A DNA stretch of 42,291 nucleotides from Escherichia phage Lidtsur: the sequence record NC_048177.1; one strand, given 5' to 3'. Position 1 is the first letter of the stretch. Every line of letters starts with the position of its first letter. The notes beneath the pieces are model-generated. The model made no database searches. It saw only the letters and a program-made list of their open reading frames with translations, and had not been told where the DNA came from. Of this stretch, positions 1-19,747 are shown one piece after another. The position numbers and the translations under genes are program-made.

Positions 1-393
1 ATGTACCGTATCTATGCAAGCGCATATCGTCAGGCAAACGCTGAGTGTGTTAATCTGGCGCTTCATTGCAAGGCACTGCGAACGGTGCAGGATATGTTCG
101 GAGTGATTCCGGTCACACTGACAGGCAAGTTTAACGATGCGTATGAGTTAAGCATGGTCTTCCCTGTCGATGGAATCTACGAAATCAGACAGGCTGTTAA
201 GCTGTTCTGTAAAGCCTTTGAACAGGACTGCATCATGGTAGTGACCGATGATGATGATGCAATCTTCATGGATTCACCATATCCGGGCAAGCCTGCTGGC
301 AAGTTTGTCAGCAAGACTGAGGCCGAAATGGAAGCCGGGCAATTCACTGCTTGGACTTACGATGGTGAGCAATTTTGGGTAGTGGAGGCATAA
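1..393 (+). CDS. hypothetical early protein (130 aa)
   Basis: ORF starts at ATG at position 1; a GGAG Shine-Dalgarno (CAACTGGAGAAATAACT) lies at the last bases of the window, so the gene is intact only if the contig is circularly permuted; acidic DDDD stretch; no recognisable domain. Confidence 0.5.
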   Translation: MYRIYASAYRQANAECVNLALHCKALRTVQDMFGVIPVTLTGKFNDAYELSMVFPVDGIYEIRQAVKLFCKAFEQDCIMVVTDDDDAIFMDSPYPGKPAGKFVSKTEAEMEAGQFTAWTYDGEQFWVVEA

Positions 394-394
394 A

Positions 395-469
395 ATGTTC
401 GCAGCACTGTGTGTACTGGCTGCGCTCTGCTGGGTAGTAGACCAGCGCCTGAGCAAACGCCGTGGCTGA
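395..469 (+). CDS. possible 24-aa hydrophobic peptide (MFAALCVLAALCWVVDQRLSKRRG)
   Basis: ATG 7 nt after GGAGG; short hydrophobic stretch then basic tail; below track cutoff, read directly from sequence. Confidence 0.2.
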   Translation: MFAALCVLAALCWVVDQRLSKRRG

Positions 470-529
470 TAGCCTATAGCGTCCTACGGGGCGCTATGTG
501 AAATCAACCAAACCGACAAGGGGTTTATC

Positions 530-1054
530 ATGCAATTCAAATACACTAGCTTCAAAAACGTTGTCCAGCTCGACAAGGCTATCGCTGAGTCAATCAGCAG
601 CGCTAAAACACTGCGTGAAGGTATTCAGGACGTGGCTGTAGGCATTCTGATGCACGCTTACAAGCACGGTGACTACACTCGTGCTGAGCATTACGTCAAC
701 GGGCTTGGAACAGGCGTTCGCCAGAAAGCTCTGGTTGACTGGTTCGTCCAGTTTGGTGGCCTGACCATCGGCACCCGCAGCAACGGCAACGTTGGTTTCG
801 TGGGCTGGAAAGGCGCTGAGCACATCAAAGCCAACTTTGACAAGGCCAAAGAGACTGGCTGGTGGACTTGCAAGCCTGAATCTGCGTTCGAAGGGTTCGA
901 CCTGCAAGCTGCGCTCGACAAGCTGATTGCCAAAGCTGAAAAGGCAATGAACAAGGCAAACGAGCTGCGCCATGAAGGGCGTGATGAGGATGCGAACAAG
1001 GTTGTCGTGCCTCAGAACGTGCTGGACGGCCTGCGCAAGCTGAAAGCTGCGTGA
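530..1054 (+). CDS. hypothetical early protein (174 aa)
   Basis: Track ORF; ATG preceded by AAGGGG; no recognisable motif. Confidence 0.6.
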   Translation: MQFKYTSFKNVVQLDKAIAESISSAKTLREGIQDVAVGILMHAYKHGDYTRAEHYVNGLGTGVRQKALVDWFVQFGGLTIGTRSNGNVGFVGWKGAEHIKANFDKAKETGWWTCKPESAFEGFDLQAALDKLIAKAEKAMNKANELRHEGRDEDANKVVVPQNVLDGLRKLKAA

Positions 1055-1061
1055 TTACTGA

Positions 1062-1084
1062 CAGCCCATTCACTGAGTGGGCTG
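1062..1084 (+). promoter_or_regulatory. intergenic stem-loop, type A (CAGCCCA-9nt-TGGGCTG)
   Basis: Perfect 7-bp inverted repeat with TTCACTGAG loop immediately after the stop of the upstream gene; near-identical copy at 1453-1475. Confidence 0.45.
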
Positions 1085-1095
1085 GATTGTAACCA

Positions 1096-1108
1096 CGGCA
1101 ATAATGCC
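1096..1108 (+). promoter_or_regulatory. conserved 5'-leader motif CGGCAATAATGCC
   Basis: One of four copies of GGCAAT(C/A)(A/C)TGCC located ~25 nt upstream of the start codons of the paralogous acidic genes. Confidence 0.4.
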
Positions 1109-1129
1109 ACAAACCAACTGGAGATTACC

Positions 1130-1435
1130 ATGTCCAAAATTACTGTAGTCCTGCTGCGTGACCTGCCTGCCTCCGCTTTCTCTGGCGGCCACGTTGAAGA
1201 AATGCAACAGCGTGAATACGTGGCGCTGACCGATGGCAGCCGCTATCTGATTGCAGGCATCAACAAAGACCACGATAGCAAAGAGACTATCGAGGCGCAC
1301 TTCCGGGCGAATGGCATCGACCCTGACCTGCCGCTGCCGCTCGTCGCCATGATGAACAGCGTGCCGCTGCTGGATGCCGCCGATGTGGAAGGTGCGACCA
1401 TTGACGAAGTGTTCAGCGTTGAATCCGCAGCCTAA
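1130..1435 (+). CDS. small acidic early protein, paralogue family member 1 (101 aa)
   Basis: ATG with GGAG SD; N-terminus MSKITVVLL resembles MTKLVLI / MTKVTVLL / MAKVTAYF of neighbours; acidic composition. Confidence 0.65.
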   Translation: MSKITVVLLRDLPASAFSGGHVEEMQQREYVALTDGSRYLIAGINKDHDSKETIEAHFRANGIDPDLPLPLVAMMNSVPLLDAADVEGATIDEVFSVESAA

Positions 1436-1452
1436 CGAGCTGGATTAACTGA

Positions 1453-1475
1453 CAGGCCATTCAATGAGTGGCCTG
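1453..1475 (+). promoter_or_regulatory. intergenic stem-loop, type A (CAGGCCA-9nt-TGGCCTG)
   Basis: 7-bp inverted repeat, loop TTCAATGAG; flanks (CTGGATT..ACTGACAG / ATTGT.AACC) also match the 1062 copy. Confidence 0.45.
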
Positions 1476-1512
1476 AATTGTTAACCCAACCAATAGTCTA
1501 AGGAGACTTAAA

Positions 1513-1785
1513 ATGGCAAATGCGTACATTGCTCGCGGCGTAGATTCTCAGAAGGTTCTGGCCTACGTCCTGCGTGACAGCGACACTGAATCCCTGATTG
1601 CTCACACTCGTAAAGAGGGCGAGCCGGAAGAGGCCGAGGCTGTGCTGGCTGAACTGAAAAAGGTAGGCGTACCGCCTGCTATCGCTTTCCTGATTCACGG
1701 CATCCCGGAAGACACACTACAAGAGGTTGCTGAGCCGTTGTGGGGTGAGCGTGTGGAGCTGGAACACGTAGGCGTTGTTGAATAA
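1513..1785 (+). CDS. small acidic early protein, paralogue family member 2 (90 aa)
   Basis: AAGGAG SD; shares KK(V/L)G..(A/I)(F/G)FLIHG motif with the 2585 gene. Confidence 0.65.
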   Translation: MANAYIARGVDSQKVLAYVLRDSDTESLIAHTRKEGEPEEAEAVLAELKKVGVPPAIAFLIHGIPEDTLQEVAEPLWGERVELEHVGVVE

Positions 1786-1790
1786 CAGCG

Positions 1791-1836
1791 GGCTTGACTC
1801 AAGCCATCTTGCGAGGTGGCTTTATGGCAATCCTGC
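1791..1836 (+). promoter_or_regulatory. type B leader element: two short hairpins (loop TTGCGA) plus TGGCAATCCTGCC motif
   Basis: GGCTTG-ACT-CAAGCC and GCCAUC-TTGCGA-GGUGGC stems followed by the conserved GGCAAT..TGCC motif; repeated at 2164 and 2524. Confidence 0.45.
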
Positions 1837-1860
1837 CTCTTAAATTCTGGAGTAATTATC

Positions 1861-2157
1861 ATGACTAAACTCGTACTGATTCGCGGCATCGCTGCTGAAA
1901 AATTTGAAGACGGCGTATCCGCTCCGGTGCTGGCTATCGAGGGTGAAGATACCTTCGCAATCCTGCAAGGTCTGTCGGACGGCTACAACATCGACGAAAT
2001 CAAAGCTGGTGCTCTCGAACAGCTTGGCGAGTCGGGCGATGAGCTGCCGCCTGAGTTCCTGTGGCCTATGCTGTTCAGCAACGGAGTGAACAAAGACAGT
2101 GACGACCTGAAAGGCACGGAAGTTGAAGTGCTGCATGTGTTCGGCGCTGCTGCGTGA
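1861..2157 (+). CDS. small acidic early protein, paralogue family member 3 (98 aa)
   Basis: Internal ATG of track ORF 1816-2157 chosen because GGAG SD lies 8 nt upstream and N-terminus MTKLVLI matches paralogues. Confidence 0.65.
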   Translation: MTKLVLIRGIAAEKFEDGVSAPVLAIEGEDTFAILQGLSDGYNIDEIKAGALEQLGESGDELPPEFLWPMLFSNGVNKDSDDLKGTEVEVLHVFGAAA

Positions 2158-2163
2158 TGCCCG

Positions 2164-2201
2164 GTTGCCTCCTTGCGAGGGGGCAACATGGCAATCATGC
2201 C
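2164..2201 (+). promoter_or_regulatory. type B leader element: 9-bp stem hairpin (loop TTGCGA) plus TGGCAATCATGCC
   Basis: GTTGCCTCC-TTGCGA-GGGGGCAAC stem-loop followed by conserved motif. Confidence 0.45.
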
Positions 2202-2222
2202 CCAACCTATCGAGGATTTATC

Positions 2223-2516
2223 ATGACCAAAGTAACCGTACTGCTGACCAGTGACAAAGTAACCCTCATCGCTCTGCTGGGTGATGCTGTAGAAGATACG
2301 CCGTCACTGGCTCTGGATATCAAGCCGGGTTCCGACCTGTCTGCTGCTATCGCTGAACTGGAAACGCAGTTGAAGAAACCGACTGCGCCTATCATGTTCA
2401 TCGTGAATGGTGGCGGGTACAGCCCGGAAGCGGCAGCGCAGTACAGCCCGGAGAAAGTGGCTGAGTTCACTGTCGATAACCCGGCGCTGGATGAGTTCGT
2501 CGCTGCTGTAGCGTGA
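2223..2516 (+). CDS. small acidic early protein, paralogue family member 4 (97 aa)
   Basis: Internal ATG of track ORF 2154-2516; GAGGA SD; N-terminus MTKVTVLL. Confidence 0.65.
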   Translation: MTKVTVLLTSDKVTLIALLGDAVEDTPSLALDIKPGSDLSAAIAELETQLKKPTAPIMFIVNGGGYSPEAAAQYSPEKVAEFTVDNPALDEFVAAVA

Positions 2517-2523
2517 TTTCTGT

Positions 2524-2562
2524 CTGCCCTTGCATAGTCGAGGGCAGTAGGGCAATCATGCC
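2524..2562 (+). promoter_or_regulatory. type B leader element: hairpin CTGCCCT-10nt-AGGGCAG plus GGGCAATCATGCC
   Basis: 7-bp inverted repeat followed by conserved motif. Confidence 0.45.
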
Positions 2563-2584
2563 ACAACTAACTGAGGGTTCAATC

Positions 2585-2875
2585 ATGGCTAAAGTAACTG
2601 CGTACTTCTCTGCATCCCAAAAAGATATCATCGCTGTGGTCGGCGACGGTCTGGCTCAGGGCAACATGGCACTGTGCACCAGCGGCACCGAGAGCGGCGA
2701 CACTTTCGACACCAAAGAAAGCGCCATCGCTGGGCTGCCGACTCTGTTCGACGATATCAAAAAGCTGGGGGCTATTGGCTTCCTGATTCACGGTGGCGCG
2801 TTGAATGATGACGCTGCTGAGCGTATGGTCGCCGATGGTTATGAAGAAATCGGCTCTATCGAAATCGAAGAGTAA
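2585..2875 (+). CDS. small acidic early protein, paralogue family member 5 (96 aa)
   Basis: Internal ATG of track ORF 2513-2875; GAGGG SD; strongly acidic C-terminus. Confidence 0.65.
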   Translation: MAKVTAYFSASQKDIIAVVGDGLAQGNMALCTSGTESGDTFDTKESAIAGLPTLFDDIKKLGAIGFLIHGGALNDDAAERMVADGYEEIGSIEIEE

Positions 2876-2897
2876 TGCCAGCGCTTGAAGTGTTGGC

Positions 2898-2937
2898 GAT
2901 GATTAGCTGCCATGTAGGTGTTGGCACGCTAATCATC
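2898..2937 (+). promoter_or_regulatory. long imperfect stem-loop (about 15 bp stem), candidate RNase III site or early terminator
   Basis: GATGATTAGC+TGCCA pairs with TGGCA+c+GCTAATCATC around a 9-nt loop; lies in the only sizeable gap of the early region; no downstream U-tract. Confidence 0.4.
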
Positions 2938-2985
2938 TACATCGTTCGCGCTGCCCATAAATCATACAAACGTTAGGAGTTTTGC

Positions 2986-3162
2986 ATGAAGATTGCGGTA
3001 ACACGGAGCGGTGCGAGCCACGTTGCGCACAAGATGCACTTCCTGTTTCACTCGCTGTATCTCACAGCGGCTGCGCTCGAAGGGCATCTGTTCTATAGCA
3101 TCATGGCAGGGGGCACCTTACTGTTCATGTTAGGCACGGCGGTGCTTGGCGATGAACACTAA
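2986..3162 (+). CDS. small hydrophobic membrane protein (58 aa)
   Basis: ATG 8 nt after TAGGAG; translation MKIAVTRSGASHVAHKMHFLFHSLYLTAAALEGHLFYSIMAGGTLLFMLGTAVLGDEH; below track cutoff. Confidence 0.4.
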   Translation: MKIAVTRSGASHVAHKMHFLFHSLYLTAAALEGHLFYSIMAGGTLLFMLGTAVLGDEH

Positions 3163-3325
3163 TCTGCTGGGCTGGGTGAAGAGGGTGGAGCGTCGCCACT
3201 GGGAGACAGCCATCATTCTCAAGGTGGGTATCAGCGCTGGACTGGCTGCTGCTTACTTCTTGCCTACCTCCGCAGCAATAGCCGTTGGCATCAGCATCAA
3301 CTTGCTATGGTTGTGGAAGCTGTAA
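3152..3325 (+). CDS. small hydrophobic membrane protein (57 aa)
   Basis: ATG overlaps the stop region of the preceding small ORF; translation MNTNLLGWVKRVERRHWETAIILKVGISAGLAAAYFLPTSAAIAVGISINLLWLWKL has one clear TMD. Confidence 0.35.
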   Translation: MNTNLLGWVKRVERRHWETAIILKVGISAGLAAAYFLPTSAAIAVGISINLLWLWKL

Positions 3326-3396
3326 GCAGTGGATTACTCAAGGCTGTCCAGCGGGTAGCCTTTATGAAATCCATTCCACAAACAGAGGGTATTAAC

Positions 3397-3663
3397 ATGA
3401 GCAAATTAAAATTAGGTCAGCGCGTTAAATCAACTTGGTTCAACGACGCTGTAGGTGTGGTTGTGTACCGTGGCGATACTGGTGAGAGCCTGCCTGCATT
3501 CGATGCGCACCCGGATGTAGATATGTACCGTGGTCTGGCGTCTGATGACGATGACTTCATCGTCCTGTTCGACGACACGCAGGCCGAAGGTGTTAGCGGC
3601 GAACTGGCTGGCGTGCTGGGTTACGGCTACGACAATGACGGCGACTTCGAAGCGTTGGAGTAA
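3397..3663 (+). CDS. acidic hypothetical protein (88 aa)
   Basis: Internal ATG of track ORF 3307-3663 preceded by AGAGGG; very acidic (DDDD, DNDGD). Confidence 0.55.
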   Translation: MSKLKLGQRVKSTWFNDAVGVVVYRGDTGESLPAFDAHPDVDMYRGLASDDDDFIVLFDDTQAEGVSGELAGVLGYGYDNDGDFEALE

Positions 3664-3665
3664 GC

Positions 3666-3998
3666 ATGGCATTCCACAAAGTGAAAGTGTATCGCGGCAA
3701 GGACTTCGAGGATGGTGAGCACGTTGTCGTGCTGACCTACCTGTTGCCCGACTACCGCGAGGGTCTGGTTGTGTTTAACCAGTTTGAAATCTTAGGTCAT
3801 CACATGACCGCAGAAGATGCAACAGACGAACAGATTATTGAGCGTGTCAAGGCGTACACTGGTGGCCGCCCGTTCATCATTGACCTGCTGAATGACCAGC
3901 ACTTCAATGCTGCCGACCGCACGATGCGGCAATGGGTCGCTACCATGACGCCTATCTTTCAGGGCGACATGTATCTGTTCGGCATAGCCGAGGGATAA
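3666..3998 (+). CDS. hypothetical protein (110 aa)
   Basis: Track ORF, tightly packed behind upstream gene. Confidence 0.55.
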   Translation: MAFHKVKVYRGKDFEDGEHVVVLTYLLPDYREGLVVFNQFEILGHHMTAEDATDEQIIERVKAYTGGRPFIIDLLNDQHFNAADRTMRQWVATMTPIFQGDMYLFGIAEG

Positions 3999-4000
3999 TC

Positions 4001-4315
4001 ATGAAAGTAAGCAGAGGTTTCCTGTTTGTCCTGCTGGTACTGGCTACTCTGTATGTCAGCACCTGCACAATGGCACTGGCTGCCACTATGGAGAAGGTGC
4101 ATTTGGATGCGTATGATGTACCGCTGGGCGCACCTGATGGACAGGTGTACTCTGCTTGCGTCATTGACCTGCATCAAGGCGGCACCATTAGCACGCTGGC
4201 CTACGTTGGCGAGTGCGAAGCGGTGCTGCCACACCTCAAAGAAAAACTGGAGGGCGATGGCACGACCACCATCGTCACTCTATCAATCAATGGTCACAAT
4301 ATTAATCTGACATGA
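4001..4315 (+). CDS. predicted secreted or membrane-anchored early protein (104 aa)
   Basis: Internal ATG of track ORF with GAGGG SD; N-terminus MKVSRGFLFVLLVLATLYVSTCTMALA looks like a signal peptide. Confidence 0.55.
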   Translation: MKVSRGFLFVLLVLATLYVSTCTMALAATMEKVHLDAYDVPLGAPDGQVYSACVIDLHQGGTISTLAYVGECEAVLPHLKEKLEGDGTTTIVTLSINGHNINLT

Positions 4316-4322
4316 GGTGACT

Positions 4323-4472
4323 ATGGGTGGCAGCACATACAATGCCCACGCCAATCAGATAACCTACGCAGGTTACTGCGCACTTGGTGGGGCAAGCAAT
4401 CCAAATCTGGTGAGCCGTGCCGTGTATCTCGGCAGCCACTTCATGCACTGGGAATATTATTTAGTGAGGTAA
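4323..4472 (+). CDS. possible small ORF (49 aa)
   Basis: ATG after GAGGTGA; fills the gap between 4315 and 4478; below track cutoff. Confidence 0.3.
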   Translation: MGGSTYNAHANQITYAGYCALGGASNPNLVSRAVYLGSHFMHWEYYLVR

Positions 4473-4477
4473 CTATC

Positions 4478-4765
4478 ATGTCACTGGCAAGCGAATCAAT
4501 CGTGGATGTTGCTGCACTCATTCATGATGAAGAAGAACAGCGCGGCGTCGCCGCAACCCGTGGCCACCTTGCAGGTAATGGTGGGCTGCGTGGTCATTCA
4601 GTCGGCGGCGTATTCCCCTGCGTAATCTACGCGACGGGCAACATCCACGCAGCACCACCAGTCTGGAACTTCAAGTCACCGGATGGGGTGGAGCACACTG
4701 GCTTCATCAGTTATGAAGATGCGGAAGCAGCCGCGCAAATCTGGCTGGAAGAAAGAGAGGTATGA
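4478..4765 (+). CDS. hypothetical protein (95 aa)
   Basis: Track ORF; GTGAGG SD. Confidence 0.5.
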   Translation: MSLASESIVDVAALIHDEEEQRGVAATRGHLAGNGGLRGHSVGGVFPCVIYATGNIHAAPPVWNFKSPDGVEHTGFISYEDAEAAAQIWLEEREV

Positions 4766-4766
4766 T

Positions 4767-5066
4767 ATGTCCAATCCAAAATGGGAAGCGCTGGTACAGT
4801 GGGTGAAGGATGCCTTTGGGCCTATGCCAACTGCCGTGGCTGACCCGGAGCCGTTCGAGTACATCACCAAGACCAGTGAGCAACTGGAAATCGGTGACTA
4901 CATCGTCGCTTACTCTGGCTATGTGCAGCGCCTCGGTGCCGTCGAGTATGATGGCAAGCGCTTGGTAGTAACCAAGTCCGGTCACTCTCCTGAGTATGAG
5001 TTCTATGCTTACGAGAATGACAAGTTCTCAATCCGTAAAGTAAAAGGTAAATCACATGGCTATTAA
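4767..5066 (+). CDS. hypothetical protein (99 aa)
   Basis: Internal ATG of track ORF 4683-5066 after AGAGAGG SD, 2 nt past the upstream stop. Confidence 0.5.
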   Translation: MSNPKWEALVQWVKDAFGPMPTAVADPEPFEYITKTSEQLEIGDYIVAYSGYVQRLGAVEYDGKRLVVTKSGHSPEYEFYAYENDKFSIRKVKGKSHGY

Positions 5067-5571
5067 TTTTGAAAAGTTTAACAAGCAGCAGCTTGCAGTT
5101 GTGTGCCAGCTCGGTAATGAAATCGACGCCACCCCTGATGTGCACGATATTATCGAGTTCCGTGGCGGGTTCATCCCGAAGGTAGTGTACGTCGCTGCGG
5201 TGCGTAACAACCGTGTTGACAGCATCGGCATCATTCAGCCTACCCGTACGGGTGCAGTCCTTGCCCGCAACGTGACCCTCATCGCCAGCCTGAGCGCCAA
5301 GCAAATGGAACTGGAAGGTGACAGAGAGGGCGTCGTTGCTATGCAGATGGCAGCCAGCTTAGCGGTACGCTTTGCATGTGAAGAGACTGTGCATGATTCG
5401 TATCATGAATGGTTCCTCGCCTGCGAGCATGTGCCGTCCGACCTGACAGAGACGCAGCTCAGCCTCCTGTTCGCTGGCGAAGTTCTCGACCAGATGCTGC
5501 ACCAATTACAGGGTGGCCTGTCTGAATTAATGGAAGCGGCGCGGGGTGTCAAACGTGCTACGCTCCACTAA
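5056..5571 (+). CDS. hypothetical protein (171 aa)
   Basis: Track ORF; start overlaps upstream gene end. Confidence 0.55.
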   Translation: MAINFEKFNKQQLAVVCQLGNEIDATPDVHDIIEFRGGFIPKVVYVAAVRNNRVDSIGIIQPTRTGAVLARNVTLIASLSAKQMELEGDREGVVAMQMAASLAVRFACEETVHDSYHEWFLACEHVPSDLTETQLSLLFAGEVLDQMLHQLQGGLSELMEAARGVKRATLH

Positions 5572-5737
5572 TCTGGTGGTTCGTAAATCACCCACTGGTA
5601 AACACTGGTGGGTGGTTTATGAAGACCTGCCGACATATCCGTTCGCAGTGCGCGAAACAAAATGGGAGGCCGAAGCTAAGCGCGACGACCTTCAACGTAT
5701 AGTAAATAGCATGGGGATAAGTGAATGCCACGCATAA
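5546..5737 (+). CDS. hypothetical protein (63 aa); start uncertain (GTG)
   Basis: Track ORF with GTG start overlapping upstream gene by 26 nt; true start may be a downstream GTG. Confidence 0.35.
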   Translation: MSNVLRSTNLVVRKSPTGKHWWVVYEDLPTYPFAVRETKWEAEAKRDDLQRIVNSMGISECHA

Positions 5738-5964
5738 CAAAAGTGGAAGACCTGAAAGAAGGTGATGTGTATCAACTGTCCGGCGGTATCTTCTGCGCGG
5801 TTGTGCTCGACACCAATAAGAGTGGGTTTAATTATGTTGGCCTCGATAAAGAAGACAGCAACACTCTTGTATTCGTTGGGGTAGATAATGGCCAGCCTCA
5901 GTATTTCCCGGAGGGTTTACTTGACGACCCGGATACTGAATACGGAATGGTATCAAAGGCTTAG
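5725..5964 (+). CDS. hypothetical protein (79 aa)
   Basis: Track ORF. Confidence 0.45.
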   Translation: MPRITKVEDLKEGDVYQLSGGIFCAVVLDTNKSGFNYVGLDKEDSNTLVFVGVDNGQPQYFPEGLLDDPDTEYGMVSKA

Positions 5965-6032
5965 ATATTTACTCATGGCATTCTTGATGGATGCCATTAT
6001 GAAAGTATCTGTTAAGCACAACCGGAGGAAAT

Positions 6033-6233
6033 ATGCTCAAAGTATTAGCGCTGTTTGTAGCTGTAGTTATTTTGTGGGGTGTTGCGTGGGTAGGTATCGC
6101 CTATCTTATTGCACCCTATATCGGGACGCAGCTTACTGGTGTGTTAGGCACACTGCTTGGCTTCGTCGTGGGCGCAGTTGGTATGACCAAGTGCATCGAC
6201 TATGGCTGGGGTAAAGGGTGGATTAAATGGTAG
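6033..6233 (+). CDS. small membrane protein, two predicted TMDs (66 aa)
   Basis: CGGAGGAA SD; sequence is almost entirely two hydrophobic helices. Confidence 0.5.
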   Translation: MLKVLALFVAVVILWGVAWVGIAYLIAPYIGTQLTGVLGTLLGFVVGAVGMTKCIDYGWGKGWIKW

Positions 6234-6679
6234 ACAAGACTTATGCGATGGGCGACCGCATCCGACAGGTAGGCTCCAACTGTGGCACACGCCGTGGCTC
6301 TGAGGGTATCGTAATATATGCGCGGCCTGATGCCCCGAAGGGTGAAACGAAATACCTCGTTCACTGGTACATGTCAGAGAACGGCTACCGCAGGACTGAG
6401 CCAGAGATAGGGCGCTACAAATCTGACTGGCTGACGTCCAACACCATACTCATAGGCGAGCCTGAACCTGCACCTGAGCAGGGCCGGGGCAGATTCATGT
6501 GCCTCGTTGAAGGTGGTACGACGCCGCCGCGACTCATCCACACTACCGAAGAGTCAGCTCGCCGTGAAGCTGAGCGTCTATCCAGAGTGCATGGTGTCAC
6601 AGCCCGCGTCTTGCGTGTCGTTGGTAGTGTCAACATGAAGCGCATAGTGCAGTACGAGCCGGAGTGGGACAACGAATGA
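6227..6679 (+). CDS. hypothetical protein (150 aa)
   Basis: Track ORF. Confidence 0.55.
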   Translation: MVDKTYAMGDRIRQVGSNCGTRRGSEGIVIYARPDAPKGETKYLVHWYMSENGYRRTEPEIGRYKSDWLTSNTILIGEPEPAPEQGRGRFMCLVEGGTTPPRLIHTTEESARREAERLSRVHGVTARVLRVVGSVNMKRIVQYEPEWDNE

Positions 6680-7389
6680 GAAAGACAGTGAGCAATGACG
6701 AATGGCCGGAGCTGGCGAGGCGTCTGCCGATAGGACAAAAGCGTCGGACGTTTCACGCTTGCTCGCGCTCATTCAGTAAGACCAACTTTGAGTATGGCCG
6801 GAACAGCGAGGGCGTATGGTGCAAGTGCCACCGCTGCGGCCACTCTGATTTTCAACCCCTCAACCATGCACCATACATACCGCCAGCCAAAGAGCAGGTG
6901 AAGGTGCCGACTGATGTTGTCCCTCTCATTGAGGTGATAGCCAAACAGCCGGGACTTCTGCTGCCAGCGCTGGAGAAGAATGAGCTGCTGCCACACCTCA
7001 GTGTGCTGACTGCCAGCCCAACGTATGGGCGTATCTATCTGCCGGATAATTCGGCCAGCTACTGTGGTCTGGATTATACCGGGCGGCAGTTCATACCGTG
7101 GCGCTCGCCACACAACCACCTAATGGCAGTGACTGTCACCAACCACGATGAGGATGAGACGCGAGGCATATGGATTTACGATGCCGCCGCCGACTATCTT
7201 GAGCATGTGCGTAGAGGTGACAGAGTGGATGGCAACGCCGCGTTCGTAGCCAATGCAGATGATGCCACCATACGCGCTCTGGTTAGCGTTGTGCTGGCCA
7301 ATCGCTATGAAGTGATATCAATACACCACCACCAAAGCGACAGGCTCAGACGCGAGCTGAGAGTGTGTGGCAGGGTGCGAACAATATAG
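6676..7389 (+). CDS. putative DNA primase (zinc-binding N-terminus)
   Basis: ATG overlapping upstream stop (ATGA); Cys/His cluster HAC...CKCHRC near N-terminus; sits directly upstream of the helicase as in phages with split primase and helicase. Confidence 0.5.
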   Translation: MRKTVSNDEWPELARRLPIGQKRRTFHACSRSFSKTNFEYGRNSEGVWCKCHRCGHSDFQPLNHAPYIPPAKEQVKVPTDVVPLIEVIAKQPGLLLPALEKNELLPHLSVLTASPTYGRIYLPDNSASYCGLDYTGRQFIPWRSPHNHLMAVTVTNHDEDETRGIWIYDAAADYLEHVRRGDRVDGNAAFVANADDATIRALVSVVLANRYEVISIHHHQSDRLRRELRVCGRVRTI

Positions 7390-7398
7390 GAGGGTAAT

Positions 7399-8664
7399 GT
7401 GCTTGATAAACTGTTGCTCTCTGTCATGCGCGAGCGGGGTAAATACAATACCCTGCGACACGCCATTCCAGAGGACATGATGAGCCAGACTACCAGCTAC
7501 ATGCTGCGTGCATATGGCTCATACTTCGAGGCGTTTCCAGATTCAGACTATGTGGATATGGATACGCTTGGCACACACGTCCGGCTCAAGACGGGTAGCA
7601 CGCCTGAACAGATGGCGGCGTTTGAGTCTTTGTGCCAGCAGCTCCGGGAGTATCAACCAACCAAGCCGCAGGTAGAAGGAATCATTGACCAGTTAGTCGA
7701 GCTGGATACAGCGGGCAAGGTTAACCTCCTTGCTCAGAGGTACGACAATGGTGAGGAAATTGATTTTATCTACGAGCTTGGGCGTCTTGCTGAGGGCGCA
7801 CGTCGCAGCCGGGGGCAGTCATCTATCACTGATTACGTGGACGATGATGTGGTTGATATTATTAATCGCACGGATGACGACCACGGTTTCAAGTTCGGTC
7901 TTATCTGCTTGCAAGACAGTGTGCGCGTGCTTCTCCCCGGCGACTCAGTTGCCATCGGCGCTCGACCCGACAGCGGGAAGACTTCCTTCCTCGCGTTTAA
8001 CCTTACGAGAATGGCGGCGCAGGCGCACAAGCTGCATCCGGGCAGGCCAATCCTGTGGTTCAACAACGAGGGGCAGGGCATCAATATCATCCCGCGCATC
8101 TACCAAGCGGCGTTGAAGTGCACGCTCCCTGAGTTGAAGGAGCTGGGTAAGGACAGAAAGAAACTCCACGAGAAGTATGCCAAGGCCATCGGTGCGCCAG
8201 CCAACATCATCCGCGTCAAGGATATGCACGGCGCTACTCTGGCCAAGGCTGAGCAAGTCATTGAAGCAATGAATCCCTGCATCGTGGTATGGGATATGCT
8301 GGCCAACTTCAAGCTGTCCGTGGCTGACGCGAACAGTAACAAAGCCAGCCAAGTCGAGCAACTCTGGCAGGAGGTACGTGAGCTGGCGGTGCGGCATAAC
8401 TTCGTATCAATAGCTACGGTTCAAGTATCCGCAGATGGTGCCGACGATATGTTCCCTGCGCTGGATGCACTCAAGGATTCCAAGACTGGTATCCAAGGTG
8501 CGACCGATGTGATTGTCATGCTCGGTTCGGTTGACGACCCGGCGCTGGCAGCACGGCGCGGTGTGAGCACTCCGAAGAACAAGCGGCAGGTGGCTGGGCG
8601 TCCATCCAACATCCGGTCGCAGGTTCATTTCTATGCAGACAAATGCCAATTCGAGGATATGTAA
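7399..8664 (+). CDS. DnaB-like replicative DNA helicase
   Basis: GTG start after AGGAGGG; Walker A GARPDSGKTSFL (DnaB-type) and Walker B-like IVVWDML. Confidence 0.85.
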   Translation: MLDKLLLSVMRERGKYNTLRHAIPEDMMSQTTSYMLRAYGSYFEAFPDSDYVDMDTLGTHVRLKTGSTPEQMAAFESLCQQLREYQPTKPQVEGIIDQLVELDTAGKVNLLAQRYDNGEEIDFIYELGRLAEGARRSRGQSSITDYVDDDVVDIINRTDDDHGFKFGLICLQDSVRVLLPGDSVAIGARPDSGKTSFLAFNLTRMAAQAHKLHPGRPILWFNNEGQGINIIPRIYQAALKCTLPELKELGKDRKKLHEKYAKAIGAPANIIRVKDMHGATLAKAEQVIEAMNPCIVVWDMLANFKLSVADANSNKASQVEQLWQEVRELAVRHNFVSIATVQVSADGADDMFPALDALKDSKTGIQGATDVIVMLGSVDDPALAARRGVSTPKNKRQVAGRPSNIRSQVHFYADKCQFEDM

Positions 8665-10029: not shown

Positions 10030-12489
10030 GTGAGAGTGCAGATAATCGACGTCGAGACAGAGAACAATGATTGGTTCGGTGAGCTGGCATCGCCACGCTG
10101 CCCGGACAATTATGTTGTCATGCAAGGCCAACGAGACTGCGAACTGACCAAGGATGGCTGGGAGTTCTATGAGCGCGAAGAGTATCGGTACTCGTCTAAG
10201 GAAGACTGGGCAGAGAACAAGTCTCTGCACCTGCATCCTGATACGAAGATGCTGGTAGCCCATAACGCGCCGTACGAATTAAGCTGGTGGTTCATGCACT
10301 ATGGGGATGAGTTCATTGACTTCCTCAAACGTGGTGGCCGTGTGTTCTGTACAGCGTACGCCGAGTACCTGCTGACACACCAGCAATCCCAGTACCCATC
10401 CTTGAACGAGACTGCCCCGAAGTATGGCGGTACTCACAAGGTTGATGCAGTCAAAGCAATGTGGGAGGCAGGTTATCTCACAAGCCAGATTGACCCTGAG
10501 CTGTTGAGTGAATACTTATCAGGGCCGAGCGGCGATATCGAGAACACCACGAAGGTGTTCGTCGGGCAATGGAAGGAACTTGAAAAGCAAGGGATGTTGA
10601 AGATGGCGCTCACTCGCATGGAAGGTATGCTGATGTGGGCGTACATGATGCACTCCGGTCTGCACGTAGACCGCGAGGTTGCCGAGCGCAATCGCCAAGA
10701 GCTGATGACGCAAATCAATGAGCTGACTGATAAGCTGCTGGACTACCTGCCGGACGACATGCCGCAGGAAGCCCGCGAGCAATTCAAGTTCACGTCTGCT
10801 TATCACATGAGCGCATTCGTATTCGGCGGCGTGTTCAAATACAAAGCCCGTGTACCGCGCACGGACGACGGTGGCAATCCTATCTATGTGAAGGTTGACG
10901 CACCGCTGTTCAAGCGCGGCAAGGAGAAGTGGTTGAAGCACAAGGATGAGTGCGTGTTCGATGAAGAGTCCGGGCTATGGTATGACCCGGTAGAGAAGGT
11001 GCACCAGTGTCTTTACACGGCTGGCAAGTTCAAGGGTGAACCCAAGTACGAGCGGCTGGCCACCGATGAGGTGGACATGAAGTGGGGCGAGCTGACCTGT
11101 AAGCTGCCCGGTCTGCTGCGCGACAAAGATAGGCGAGCGCGTGAGATTGCAGACAACCTTCTGTGGGAAGACCCGAAGCGTCCGGGCGAATATCTGCGGC
11201 GCACTGGTGATTGGGTAGGTAAGCGTAAGCTGGCTGATGGCACCCCGGTGTTCAGTACAGCAGGCGAGGTGCTGGACATTCTGGCAGCGCGTAAGATTCC
11301 CGGCGTCGTTGAGATTGCCGACCGCGCTAAAGCACAGAAAGACCTTGGCACCTACTACCTGAGCGAGACGTTCGATGAGGAAGGTAATGTTACTGGTCAG
11401 TCTGGTATGATGCAGTTCATCCAGCCGGACGGTATCGTACACCACACCATCAACATGACCGCCACCGAAACTACTCGACTCTCATCGGCTCGACCAAATA
11501 GCCAGAACCTTCCACGCAAAGGCACGAGTAAAGTTAAGCAGATGTTCACCTCCCGGTTTGGGCCGGACGGTCGCATCGTTGAGGCTGACTACTCAGCGCT
11601 GGAAGTAGTAGGGCTGGCGGGATTCAGTAAGGACAGGAACCTCGTCAAAGCTCTGATGGATAACATCGACATGCACTGTATGCGTCTTGCCGCGCAGCTC
11701 AATGAGGACTACGAAGAGGTCAAGCGTAAGGCTAAGGATGAGTCACATCCTGAGCACGAGCGCTATAGCCAGATGCGTACAGACATTAAGCCCAAGGCAT
11801 TCTCGTATCAGTATGGTGCGACGGCGCGAGGTATCGCGTACTCCACTGGCTGCACTGAGGAAGAGGCGCAGGCATTCATCGACAACGAGAAAGCCCTGTT
11901 CCCGGAAGTGGAATCATGGTTTGAATCGGTTATCTTCCCGGCTGTGGAGCGCAGCGGTCAGAGCAATATCTTCAAGGAGCAGGATGAGAATGGACGGTGG
12001 TGCGTCTACCGCCGTGGCTTCTTCAAGTCTCCGGGTGGTACGTGTTACTCATTCCGTCAGTATGAGAAATGGGATAGCGCAGCCCGCAGTTACTTGATGA
12101 TGTACAAGCCAACCCAAATGCGTAACTATCCGATTCAGGGTGAGACAGCGTTTTGGGTGCAGGGTATCGGTGGCCTGTTGTTCCGCTGGCTGCTGGCCAA
12201 TGACTTCTTTGGTGGGCGCGTGGTTCCCATCAACCAAGTGCATGACGCATTCTATTTCGACATAGCGCCTGACTGCCCGCATGAGTTCTTCGTTGGACTC
12301 AAGGCAATCATGGAGTGCATCCCGGAATACTTCAACCACGTATGGCCTGAGTATGACCTGAGAGTTCCGTTCCCGGCAGAGGTGGAAGCAGGCCCAAGCA
12401 TGTATGAGAAGCACCACGTAGAGACGACAGCCGAAGAAGTGCTGGAGTTCAAATGTAATTTCCTGAAATCTAAGGGTATCAAGATATGA
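10030..12489 (+). CDS. family A DNA polymerase with 3'-5' exonuclease domain
   Basis: GTG start after GGAG; Exo I IIDVETE; Pol motif A DYSALEVV, motif B KAFSYQYGA, motif C QVHDAFYFD; 819 aa. Confidence 0.9.
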   Translation: MRVQIIDVETENNDWFGELASPRCPDNYVVMQGQRDCELTKDGWEFYEREEYRYSSKEDWAENKSLHLHPDTKMLVAHNAPYELSWWFMHYGDEFIDFLKRGGRVFCTAYAEYLLTHQQSQYPSLNETAPKYGGTHKVDAVKAMWEAGYLTSQIDPELLSEYLSGPSGDIENTTKVFVGQWKELEKQGMLKMALTRMEGMLMWAYMMHSGLHVDREVAERNRQELMTQINELTDKLLDYLPDDMPQEAREQFKFTSAYHMSAFVFGGVFKYKARVPRTDDGGNPIYVKVDAPLFKRGKEKWLKHKDECVFDEESGLWYDPVEKVHQCLYTAGKFKGEPKYERLATDEVDMKWGELTCKLPGLLRDKDRRAREIADNLLWEDPKRPGEYLRRTGDWVGKRKLADGTPVFSTAGEVLDILAARKIPGVVEIADRAKAQKDLGTYYLSETFDEEGNVTGQSGMMQFIQPDGIVHHTINMTATETTRLSSARPNSQNLPRKGTSKVKQMFTSRFGPDGRIVEADYSALEVVGLAGFSKDRNLVKALMDNIDMHCMRLAAQLNEDYEEVKRKAKDESHPEHERYSQMRTDIKPKAFSYQYGATARGIAYSTGCTEEEAQAFIDNEKALFPEVESWFESVIFPAVERSGQSNIFKEQDENGRWCVYRRGFFKSPGGTCYSFRQYEKWDSAARSYLMMYKPTQMRNYPIQGETAFWVQGIGGLLFRWLLANDFFGGRVVPINQVHDAFYFDIAPDCPHEFFVGLKAIMECIPEYFNHVWPEYDLRVPFPAEVEAGPSMYEKHHVETTAEEVLEFKCNFLKSKGIKI

Positions 12490-17314: not shown

Positions 17315-19747
17315 ATGATGGATTTGCTGGCAGAACAGATTCGACTGGAAGAAGAAGCCCGCGCACGCCATCGCGCGGGGTGGTTAGACAACATCAAAGC
17401 AGCGATGGATGAAGGGCGGGCATCGGCTGTGCCGCTGTTGCAGCGTGCAATGGTTAAGGCTTATCCGACTGTCGAAGCAGCTATGCAGGAAATCCTGAAT
17501 GAGAATACTCGCGGCTTTGGTGCGCAGTACCGGACGCACATGCGGGAGATTGGGGTGAAGACCTGCGCTACTCTGGCGCTCAGCATGGCAATGTCAGGGG
17601 CGGTAGAGAAGGTCGCTGTTACGCAGCACCTACGCAGCATGGGGCAGGCTCTAATGGCTGAGGTGGTGTACCACAAAGCCTCAGCCAGAGGTGCGCGTGA
17701 AGCGGCTTACATGCAGCGTGTGGGGCAAGACGTTAAGCGCTCCAAGTCGAAGTCTCCCAATCACATCTACAACAAGGCCCGCGCATCGGCGGCTAACGTT
17801 GGGGTGCACATGGATGTGTTGCCTCAGCGTGCGCTCATCACAATCGGTAAGATGATGATGCGTGCAGTCGAACCAACAGGTCTGGTCAAGACTATCCGTA
17901 TCGGTGGCAGCGCCAGACAGCGTGGCACTGCACACTTCGCTCTGCATGATGATGTGATTATCATGCTCAACGACTGGATTAAGCTGCCCGATATGACAGT
18001 AGGCTGCTACCCAGTGATGATTATCCCGCCTGCGGAAATTAATCCCAATGGGCTTGGTGGTATGTGGCACTCTCCGGGGCAGGCGGCGACGTATCAGGCA
18101 ATCAGCCGACTGCGCCACAAAGAGTACCGCGCTCAGAAGGTAGACCCGCTACCCATTATCGAGCCGTGTATGATGCTCAGTGGCACGCCGTTCCGTATCA
18201 ATAAGATGGTGCTGGAGTTCCTACAAAACAACCACACTGGCGTTATGGGCCTGCCTGCTGCGCCAGTGGAACCTAAGCTGCCATTCACAATCCCGGAAGG
18301 TGTGAGCTTTGCTCAGTACATCAGCAGGTTCCCGCCTGAAATGCAGCAGAGGATGGACGCTGAGGCGCATGAATTTAAGGTTAAAACCCGCATGTACCAT
18401 AATGAGTACCGCAGGTTTACAACCAAGGTGCAGGCGCTCGGAAGTGCGCTGGCTGAGGCTAAGCGCTACTGTGCATACGAGCGTATCTACCTGCCGACAT
18501 ACGCCGACACTCGTGGCCGAATCTACTACGCATCGTCTCTGAATCCTCAAGGTATCGACGCAATAAGGGCGCTGCTAGAATTAGCCGACGCTGTGCCGCT
18601 TGGCAGTGAAGGGTTGTTCTGGCTGAAAGTGCATGTGGCCAACTGCTTCGGCTATGACGCCACTGACTTTGAAGACCGGGCGGCTTGGACTGACAAGACC
18701 CTGCCAAGACTTCGTGAAGCCTGCCGACTGCCGGAGGCTTACGACTCATTCTGGTCTGAGGCCGATAGTCCTCTGTGTGCATGGGCAGCTTCTGTAGAGC
18801 TGGTGCGTGCGCTGGATAGCGGCAACCCGGAAGAGTACCCGTGCCGCGTTGTTACGCAGTGGGATGCAACTTGCTCAGGTCTACAGCACCTGTCGGCTAT
18901 GCTCCGTGATGAGGTGGGCGGTGCTGCCGTCAACCTGATTAACTCGCCGGGGCGCAAAGCCGATATCTACCTCAAGACTGCTGACGCAGCAATGGCAGCA
19001 CTGCGCGAGTCTGAGGCATCCTGCAAGACTGAGCTGGGGCAGTGGCTGTTGAAGATTGGCATCCAGCGTGCGATGGCCAAGAAGCCTGTAATGACCTACG
19101 TTTACGGGGCAACCCGCCACGGTATGGTTGATTACTATGCCCTGTACCTGCGCGAGAACAACATCCCATTGCCTCCCGGACACAGCCTGTTCGAGTGTGC
19201 GATGTTCATTGCCGGGATTATGTGGGACGCTATACCGCGAGTGGTTCCTAAAGCGGCAGAGCTTATGGCTTGGTTGCAATCTCTGGCGACTATGGTGGCA
19301 GAGAAAGGAGAGTACGTTGAGGTGATAGCTCCGTCAGGCTTACGGATGGTTAATCTGTATCAGGCTTCGAAAGAGGCAGCTATGGGCCTGAACCTAATGG
19401 GTGTGCACGGCATTAAGATTAGGGAATGGCTGGATAAGCCGGACTCCCGTAAGTGTGCAGCAGCTATCTCACCCAACTTTGTGCACGCTATGGATGCCAG
19501 CCACATGATGAAAGTGCTGTGGGAAATGTGGAATAACGGGGTTTACATGGTGTCTATCCATGACTCCTTCGGCGTTGCGGCAGCACACGCTGGGCTGTTG
19601 CACAGAGTCATCCGTGAAAAATTCGTGCAGATGTACGAGGAACATGACCCTATTCAGCAACTTGCTGAAAGATATGGTGTTGAGCCTCCGGCTAAAGGCC
19701 AGTTGGATATCAAAGAGGTGCTGAAATCTACCAAGTTTTTCTGCTGA
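17315..19747 (+). CDS. single-subunit DNA-dependent RNA polymerase (T7-like)
   Basis: WDATCSGLQH (motif A), AKKPVMTYVYGATRHG (motif B) and VSIHDSFGV (motif C) parallel T7 RNAP catalytic motifs; 810 aa. Confidence 0.9.
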   Translation: MMDLLAEQIRLEEEARARHRAGWLDNIKAAMDEGRASAVPLLQRAMVKAYPTVEAAMQEILNENTRGFGAQYRTHMREIGVKTCATLALSMAMSGAVEKVAVTQHLRSMGQALMAEVVYHKASARGAREAAYMQRVGQDVKRSKSKSPNHIYNKARASAANVGVHMDVLPQRALITIGKMMMRAVEPTGLVKTIRIGGSARQRGTAHFALHDDVIIMLNDWIKLPDMTVGCYPVMIIPPAEINPNGLGGMWHSPGQAATYQAISRLRHKEYRAQKVDPLPIIEPCMMLSGTPFRINKMVLEFLQNNHTGVMGLPAAPVEPKLPFTIPEGVSFAQYISRFPPEMQQRMDAEAHEFKVKTRMYHNEYRRFTTKVQALGSALAEAKRYCAYERIYLPTYADTRGRIYYASSLNPQGIDAIRALLELADAVPLGSEGLFWLKVHVANCFGYDATDFEDRAAWTDKTLPRLREACRLPEAYDSFWSEADSPLCAWAASVELVRALDSGNPEEYPCRVVTQWDATCSGLQHLSAMLRDEVGGAAVNLINSPGRKADIYLKTADAAMAALRESEASCKTELGQWLLKIGIQRAMAKKPVMTYVYGATRHGMVDYYALYLRENNIPLPPGHSLFECAMFIAGIMWDAIPRVVPKAAELMAWLQSLATMVAEKGEYVEVIAPSGLRMVNLYQASKEAAMGLNLMGVHGIKIREWLDKPDSRKCAAAISPNFVHAMDASHMMKVLWEMWNNGVYMVSIHDSFGVAAAHAGLLHRVIREKFVQMYEEHDPIQQLAERYGVEPPAKGQLDIKEVLKSTKFFC

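Follow-up and report, generated by a model that had tools for sequence, protein, structure and literature searches.

Introduction

Three papers name Lidtsur-6, Lidtsur-17 and Forsur-7 as anti-Avs (AVAST) proteins, crediting Gao et al. 2022 (Science 377:eabm4096), and the EVADES supplement gives Salmonella enterica Avs3 as the target of all three. According to the EVADES preprint, Lidtsur 6 and Forsur 7 are significantly related by BLAST at less than 25% identity and are structurally similar (FATCAT p 4.65e-12); for Forsur_7 with Avs3B, EVADES reports an AlphaFold 3 interface score (ipTM) of 0.72. Here we analyse the whole 42,291-bp genome of Escherichia phage Lidtsur (Bonnellvirus, Autographiviridae), referred to below as the window, and within it five consecutive genes, gp03 to gp07, which an initial annotation had described as a tandem array of paralogous small acidic early proteins.

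The leaders that separate these genes call for comparison with two described stem-loop elements. The PeSL elements of T4-type phages are made up of an early sigma-70 promoter and a stem-loop resembling a terminator; they flank small variable early ORFs (open reading frames), and insertions, deletions, duplications and swaps have their boundaries at them (PMC2839356, PMC4122927). In KP34-like Klebsiella phages, a different genus from Lidtsur, an early hairpin was predicted in 2015 to be a phage promoter (PMC4411677); a fragment carrying it gave no transcript from the KP34 RNA polymerase in vitro (PMC6834552).

We consider it probable that gp03 to gp07 form an early counter-defence cassette array comprising three protein families (A, B and C), in which gp06 is an anti-Avs protein. 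That Lidtsur-6 and Forsur-7 have anti-Avs activity is already in the literature, and the locus is to this extent a partly known counter-defence island. What is new is the family structure around Lidtsur-6, the candidates gp03, gp04, gp05 and gp07 together with a sixth gene, gp11, and a covarying hairpin-and-box junction between the genes.

Results

Five acidic genes, one of them the probable Lidtsur-6

The five genes follow one another on the + strand: gp03 (1130–1435; QBZ71507.1, 101 residues, isoelectric point (pI) 4.4), gp04 (1513–1785; QBZ71508.1, 90 residues), gp05 (1861–2157; QBZ71509.1, 98 residues, pI 4.06), gp06 (2223–2516; QBZ71510.1, 97 residues, beginning MTKVTVLLTSDK) and gp07 (2585–2875; 96 residues). 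Accessions QBZ71505–QBZ71522 and RefSeq tags HOV34_gp01 to gp18 were assigned to the ORFs of the window by exact-sequence look-up, and a Lidtsur protein matches gp04 at 100% identity. A GGAG or GAGG ribosome-binding site stands 6–9 nt before each of the five starts. The products have pI values of 4.06–4.61 and net charge densities between about -0.08 and -0.13, where the proteins of the genome average -0.015 (standard deviation 0.056), and together with gp11 they are the most acidic cluster of the genome. The initial annotation was accurate on these points: five consecutive + strand genes for acidic proteins of 90–101 residues are present, as are all of the N-termini it quoted and the KK(V/L)G...FLIHG motif of gp04 and gp07, albeit with unequal internal spacing (6 versus 3 residues).

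Being the sixth gene of the record (locus tag HOV34_gp06), gp06 carries the number of Lidtsur-6. It also matches forsur_34 (22.6% identity, E 9e-7), and no other pairing of an early Lidtsur protein with a forsur protein fits the EVADES description of Lidtsur 6 and Forsur 7. Counting from the SAM (S-adenosylmethionine) lyase, forsur_34 is the seventh ORF, provided that a 26-residue deletion remnant is included; the locus tag forsur_7 belongs to the RNA polymerase, which shows that the published numbering does not follow locus tags. By gene number and homology fingerprint, gp06 is most probably the published Lidtsur-6.

Three protein families

To define relationships among the five proteins, Smith-Waterman pair scores were judged against 2000 shuffles. 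The pairs gp06/gp07 (z 7.1) and gp04/gp07 (z 6.0) stand out; gp03/gp04 reaches 3.7, a value also attained by one unrelated control pair, and the remaining array pairs are not significant. Profile–profile comparison (hhalign), with profiles built from the orthologues of nine related phages, joins gp06 to gp07 (E 1e-12; identity 28%) and gp03 to gp05 (E 5e-6), and the protein Kc261_1819 is matched by both members of the second pair. The match between gp04 and gp07 has a BLAST E of 1e-3 in a tiny database and only 0.01–0.14 with family profiles.

No significant link was found between {gp03, gp05} and gp04, gp06 or gp07 (hhalign P 0.01–0.06, profile E 0.1–0.3). When the three groups were compared using deeper alignments from a large protein database, the hhalign P values were 0.01, 0.01 and 0.06, not significant, and the three families were never joined in single or iterative profile searches. 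The aligned C-terminal halves of the three groups are nonetheless colinear, and the top out-of-family match of each profile is a member of another array family (E 0.06–0.2), a range into which the unrelated neighbour gp12 also falls. Because pairwise and profile comparisons leave the groups unmerged, we divide the five proteins into family A (gp06, gp07), family B (gp04) and family C (gp03, gp05). By these comparisons gp06 and gp07 are a paralogous pair, gp03 and gp05 are distant paralogues, and gp04 is probably a distant relative of gp07, allying family B to A. The proposal that all five are paralogous thus went too far: two pairs are established, a third relationship is probable, and the link between groups falls short of significance.

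Membership of the Lidtsur-6/Forsur-7 family follows the same lines. Homology to it is found for gp06 and gp07 only; forsur_34 and glasur_7 also belong to family A, whose members are small early-region proteins of Bonnellviruses. Array and family share an early-region location in an Autographiviridae phage. In contrast, gp03 and gp05 show no such homology, and gp04 has a pairwise z of 6.0 yet a profile E of 0.01–0.14, so that none of the three is demonstrably in the family. Binding of Avs3B by Forsur_7 is itself an AlphaFold 3 suggestion, and gp07 is a member by sequence.

A conserved hairpin and box precede the genes

Each gene has its own + strand leader. That of gp03 (1055–1129) holds a hairpin (1062–1084, with outer pairs 1055–1058/1089–1092), a GGCAATAATGCC box (1097–1108), GGAG and the ATG. 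The gp05 leader (1786–1860) has its hairpin at 1801–1822 and a GGCAATCCTGCC box at 1826–1837; in glasur and Kc261 a hairpin of this type stands before family B genes. The leaders of gp06 (2158–2222; hairpin 2164–2187) and gp07 (2517–2584; hairpin 2524–2547) share the box GGCAATCATGCC, at 2190–2201 and 2551–2562, respectively. The gp04 leader (1436–1512) is box-less: its hairpin (1453–1475), a compensated copy of the gp03-leader hairpin, is followed by AATTGTTAACC and AGGAG, a variant found also at the junction after gp2. Exact copies of GGCAATNNTGCC begin at 1097, 1826, 2190 and 2551, with no further copy in the 42 kb. The earlier observation of four box-bearing leaders and a different one before the gene at 1513 is therefore correct, with the addition that the latter keeps the hairpin.

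GenBank places the start of gp07 at 2558 (QBZ71511.1, 105 residues), at an ATG within the GGCAATCATGCC box. We favour 2585 because it has a ribosome-binding site, because homologues are of 96 residues and because, ahead of gp06, the box is not in frame.

A profile of the four box-bearing leaders recovers about 35 copies in ten phages; in the window, its four + strand copies all lie within the array. In an alignment of 29 leaders compensatory changes are present in 10 of 10 hairpin pairs, and 96.6% of cells are paired compared with 65% in shuffles. The covariation score of 0.80 compares with 0.21 for shuffled alignments (0 of 500 reach it) and 0.08–0.18 for shifted controls. G-U pairs are frequent, which points to a hairpin formed in the sense-strand RNA. 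The type of hairpin mostly tracks the gene family, with one type standing before B, X (the gp11 family) or C genes in different phages. The GGCAAT-NN-TGCC box is invariant across Bonnellviruses; in a single copy on an IMG/VR contig (L024) it reads GACAATCATGTC, a symmetric double change by which the dyad is kept. Scanning IMG/VR for the box returned 55 loci, about the number that we estimate chance would give for 16 specified bases, and real arrays were confined to L054, L024/L019 and L051.

The leaders can be set against several known elements. The conserved stem-loop flanks small variable early ORFs, as PeSLs do, and cassette order varies among phages with one hairpin type before three gene families. 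Unlike PeSLs, Lidtsur leaders have no sigma-70-promoter-like or terminator-like site, and the conserved element that accompanies the hairpin is a dyad box, GGCA-N4-TGCC; sigma-70-like sites in 1–7000 number 3 (5.2 expected), none of them in a leader. An element 97.6% identical over 41 bp to the KP34-like early hairpin (AGCCTATAGCGTCCTACGGGGCGCTATGTGAA) does occur in the window, before gp2 (469–509; hairpin 475–498). Like it, the array leaders consist of a GC-rich hairpin, then TATG... and then the gene start; the KP34 element has no GGCAAT box. The window has no copy of the strong KP34 promoter T(A/G)ATGTTACAGGAGTA. RNase III processing sites of the T7 type, which lie between early genes, are long irregular hairpins (about 20 bp, interrupted by an internal loop); the leaders have an inner stem of 9–10 bp and 3–8 outer pairs (the outer pairs come from minimum-energy folds, and covariation covers the 10-bp inner stem). 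Two other identities were rejected: phage promoters, because the box occurs in the array only, and sigma-54 sites, by inspection, because the spacing is wrong. The leaders might serve to process or stabilise the RNA or to control translation, might bind a regulator, or might supply homology for cassette exchange, in which last role they would be akin to the promoter-containing PeSLs.

Hypervariability among related phages

A tblastn search of 50,697 phage genomes with gp06 gave no match at E <=1e-3; at E <=10 it found Bonnellvirus relatives only, besides chance matches in Listeria phages. The A+B profile matched 11 cluster representatives among 1.84 billion. The array families are narrowly distributed, and matches in phage genomes are confined to Bonnellviruses.

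Comparison with nine relatives reveals marked differences between the array and its flank. Orthologues of the SAM lyase are 89–97% identical and those of gp2 64–99%, while array proteins are 23–69% identical or absent; in RZ4, for example, gp2 is 99% identical and gp03 just 31%. The initial annotation had suggested comparing copy number among relatives, and content does differ, from one to six cassettes. The usual order across phages is B-C-A-X-A; Lidtsur has C-B-C-A-A with X further downstream, J8-65 has C-B2-B-X (B2 being a divergent B-like gene), and the array of ROV85 is almost empty.

Several loci preserve traces of rearrangement. In J8-65 (L003, 4005–4418) a deletion has generated a fusion gene whose product begins like gp05 and ends like gp15, and in ROV85 (L008, 3620–4150) another has joined the N-terminus of gp2 to the C-terminus of a family A protein at a short shared KPEA stretch. 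In forsur (L010, ~3066–3146) an unannotated ORF of 26 residues, MSTLKLVLISNIAADAFDADDVDFSA, is the remnant of a family C gene left by an in-frame internal deletion, with the leader retained. Set beside PeSL boundaries, both fusions and the remnant break inside coding sequence. Tandem copies are evident in two IMG/VR contigs: L024 has two family A genes in tandem, and L051 has a pair of family C genes, 60% identical and each with its own leader, followed by an orthologue of Lidtsur-6. The L051 pair provides a direct view of what had been proposed for the array, the copying of gene plus leader as a unit. Between gp2 and this pair, L051 also carries two adjoining genes for proteins of 80–82 residues (10270–10822), a hairpin before each, which look like another tandem pair from an unrelated small family.

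Close orthologues of the array proteins have ratios of nonsynonymous to synonymous change (omega) of 0.05–0.28 at synonymous divergence (dS) below 0.5. From these low values we conclude that the proteins are functional and come in discrete types, which recombination exchanges.

Predicted structures

The AlphaFold2 model of gp03, made from the family C alignment, has a mean predicted local distance difference score (pLDDT) of 86.6 and a predicted template-modelling score (pTM) of 0.77, and agrees with an independent BFVD model at a template-modelling (TM) score of 0.99. Its elements (E, strand; H, helix) are E3-10, H22-26, E30-34, E38-44, H51-61, H69-76, E80-82, H83-86 and E90-98, summarised as strand-strand-strand-helix-helix-strand. 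For gp07, the merged A+B alignment gave a model with pLDDT 72.4 and pTM 0.67 and elements E2-9, E14-21, E29-31, H44-69, H77-83 and E87-94. The order of strands and helices is the same in the two predictions. Foldseek placed the BFVD model of gp04 at a TM score of only 0.41–0.44 to our gp03 model. It is possible from these models that one fold is common to the array families.

Neither the gp03 nor the gp07 model resembles a characterised inhibitor or DNA mimic. Pfam, PHROGs and NCBIfam gave nothing informative for the five proteins, the lone match being gp07 to phrog_32287 (unknown function), and in sequence-profile searches of the PDB the sole matches, at E >1e-3, were to designed or repeat proteins. 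In related loci, the C-termini of family A and C proteins often end in an acidic run followed by D-F-x-A (DDVDFSA, HDFSAAA, LAAFADA, ASDFEA); this ending could be a shared short binding motif.

Genome setting

The + strand carries all large ORFs of Lidtsur. The SAM lyase gene opens the record (1–393; PF23780, E 1e-26) and gp2, for a conserved basic protein, is next (530–1054). The array lies between these and the replication genes, upstream of the ORF for the RNA polymerase (17315–19747, assigned from its size and its synteny with forsur, not from a search). Going by its position in the record, the array would belong to the early, first-entering part of the genome, and its genes would be expressed early.

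A sixth cassette lies beyond the coordinates first reported. It spans 3326–3663 on the + strand and consists of a degenerate leader (hairpin 3340–3362) and gp11 (ORF 3397–3663; 88 residues, pI 4.05), which forms one 90%-identity cluster with smaasur_33. In other Bonnellviruses the gp11 family is found inside the array, between two family A genes. The interval from the array to this cassette (2875–3325) holds three tiny ORFs of 33, 58 and 59 residues, two of which seem hydrophobic by eye. The 58- and 59-residue ORFs have 86%-identical counterparts in glasur, the former corresponding also to forsur_36, and L024 holds a related ORF.

Further downstream, gp17 (5056–5571; QBZ71521.1, 171 residues) is unrelated to the array families. 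Going by gene number it is probably Lidtsur-17, the other Lidtsur protein that is listed as acting against Avs. No gene could be assigned to the names usur-3, smaasur-6, mellemsur-6 and penshu1-7.

Discussion

The match of gp06 to Lidtsur-6, the published anti-Avs listings and the hypervariable, mosaic nature of the array together support the earlier suggestion of a host-defence-inhibitor locus caught up in an arms race. If so, gp03 to gp07, which are small, soluble and acidic with a predicted mixed strand/helix fold, would most likely be made from an early transcript of the host polymerase in the first minutes of infection, and each would most likely bind an immune protein of the host, one-to-one. 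That of gp06 would be an Avs STAND NTPase system. Anti-defence roles for gp03, gp04, gp05 and gp07 we infer, and each copy may have a different target. Every gene would be preceded in the transcript by a sense-strand RNA hairpin, a GGCAAT-NN-TGCC box (missing from the gp04 leader) and a ribosome-binding site, and these junctions, conserved across cassettes and phages, would mark the sites at which cassettes are duplicated, deleted, fused and reordered.

A number of observations weigh against this account. No accession or sequence for Lidtsur-6 is given in the EVADES, dbAPIS or AntiDefenseFinder supplements, and since no published sequence was found, the equation of gp06 with Lidtsur-6 depends on gene numbering and one homology fingerprint. 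If the 2022 screen by Gao and colleagues took in all early genes, as it is reported to have done, then gp03, gp04, gp05 and gp07 were presumably negative against the Avs proteins that it included. Homology is not fully proven for the merged A+B alignment behind the gp07 model. As for the leaders, Rfam has no match in 1–8000, a sigma-70 scan detected no promoter-like site in 1055–2585, and a scan for intrinsic terminators found nothing in the leaders.

Alternative explanations differ in what they make of the proteins. The initial annotation had drawn on T7 Ocr (gp0.3) to suggest that the array encodes DNA mimics, which would block restriction, BREX and other DNA-binding defences by means of a B-form pattern of charge. 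There is a likeness: Ocr too is early, small, acidic and encoded at the leading end of the incoming genome, the array proteins are from the most acidic cluster of the genome, and they adjoin an anti-restriction SAM lyase. That lyase, however, already fills in Lidtsur the anti-restriction role at this position. The charge density of Ocr is about twice that of the array proteins, and judged on net density gp03 to gp07 fall short of a mimic. The predicted folds mix strands and helices, and no similarity to any known mimic was detected in sequence or fold. The Ocr-type idea is thus not sustained, and we regard it as very improbable. An arguably better alternative is that the array proteins other than gp06 are general host-takeover factors directed at transcription, replication, division or metabolism, in the manner of T7 gp0.4, gp2 and gp5.7. 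Their position and size fit the class I genes of T7-like phages, housekeeping targets in the host are compatible with all of the sequences, and purifying selection acts on close orthologues. Against this, factors that hit conserved host machinery are usually conserved genus-wide, but here the number of cassettes runs from one to six; whole families are missing from the viable phages ROV85, mellemsur and usur; identity drops abruptly beside near-identical flanking genes; and the literature lists two proteins of family A among inhibitors of immunity. On balance takeover functions seem unlikely.

A separate question is whether the five genes have a single origin. It may be, at somewhat less than even chances in our judgement, that family C is unrelated to A and B. 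Profile comparisons between the groups are not significant, the unrelated control gp12 scores like the cross-family matches, and the gp03 and gp04 models are only loosely alike by Foldseek. The N-terminal M-[ST]-K-[LIV]-T-V would then owe its similarity to the conserved junction, to codons that favour translation and to similar amino-acid composition; the first codons are in fact alike in DNA and adjoin the conserved leader. The colinear C-terminal halves and the common order of strands and helices are to be set beside this. At the opposite extreme, and with little likelihood in our estimation, the hairpin and GGCA-N4-TGCC would constitute a dedicated control and shuffling module, and A, B and C would be one ancient strand/helix scaffold that has radiated against different immune sensors. 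Such a module might act in RNA, setting processing, stability or translation for each cassette, or it might be the operator at which a phage regulator binds, with the conserved basic gp2 as one candidate and Aca control of anti-CRISPR genes as an analogy; in DNA, the junction would supply homology for the exchange of cassettes.

To our knowledge very few inhibitors of Avs are known, and their mechanism is unsettled. Our analysis sets Lidtsur-6 in a tandem array where its neighbours are gp07, a paralogue, gp04, a probable distant relative, and gp03 and gp05, which form another family. If it serves counter-defence as we propose, the array would offer a short list of candidates against other defence systems, along with natural variants for the mapping of specificity. 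The hairpin-and-box junction is a possible handle in searches for such cassettes in related phages, and the leaders of the array provide a fresh comparison set for the unexplained hairpin in the early region of KP34.

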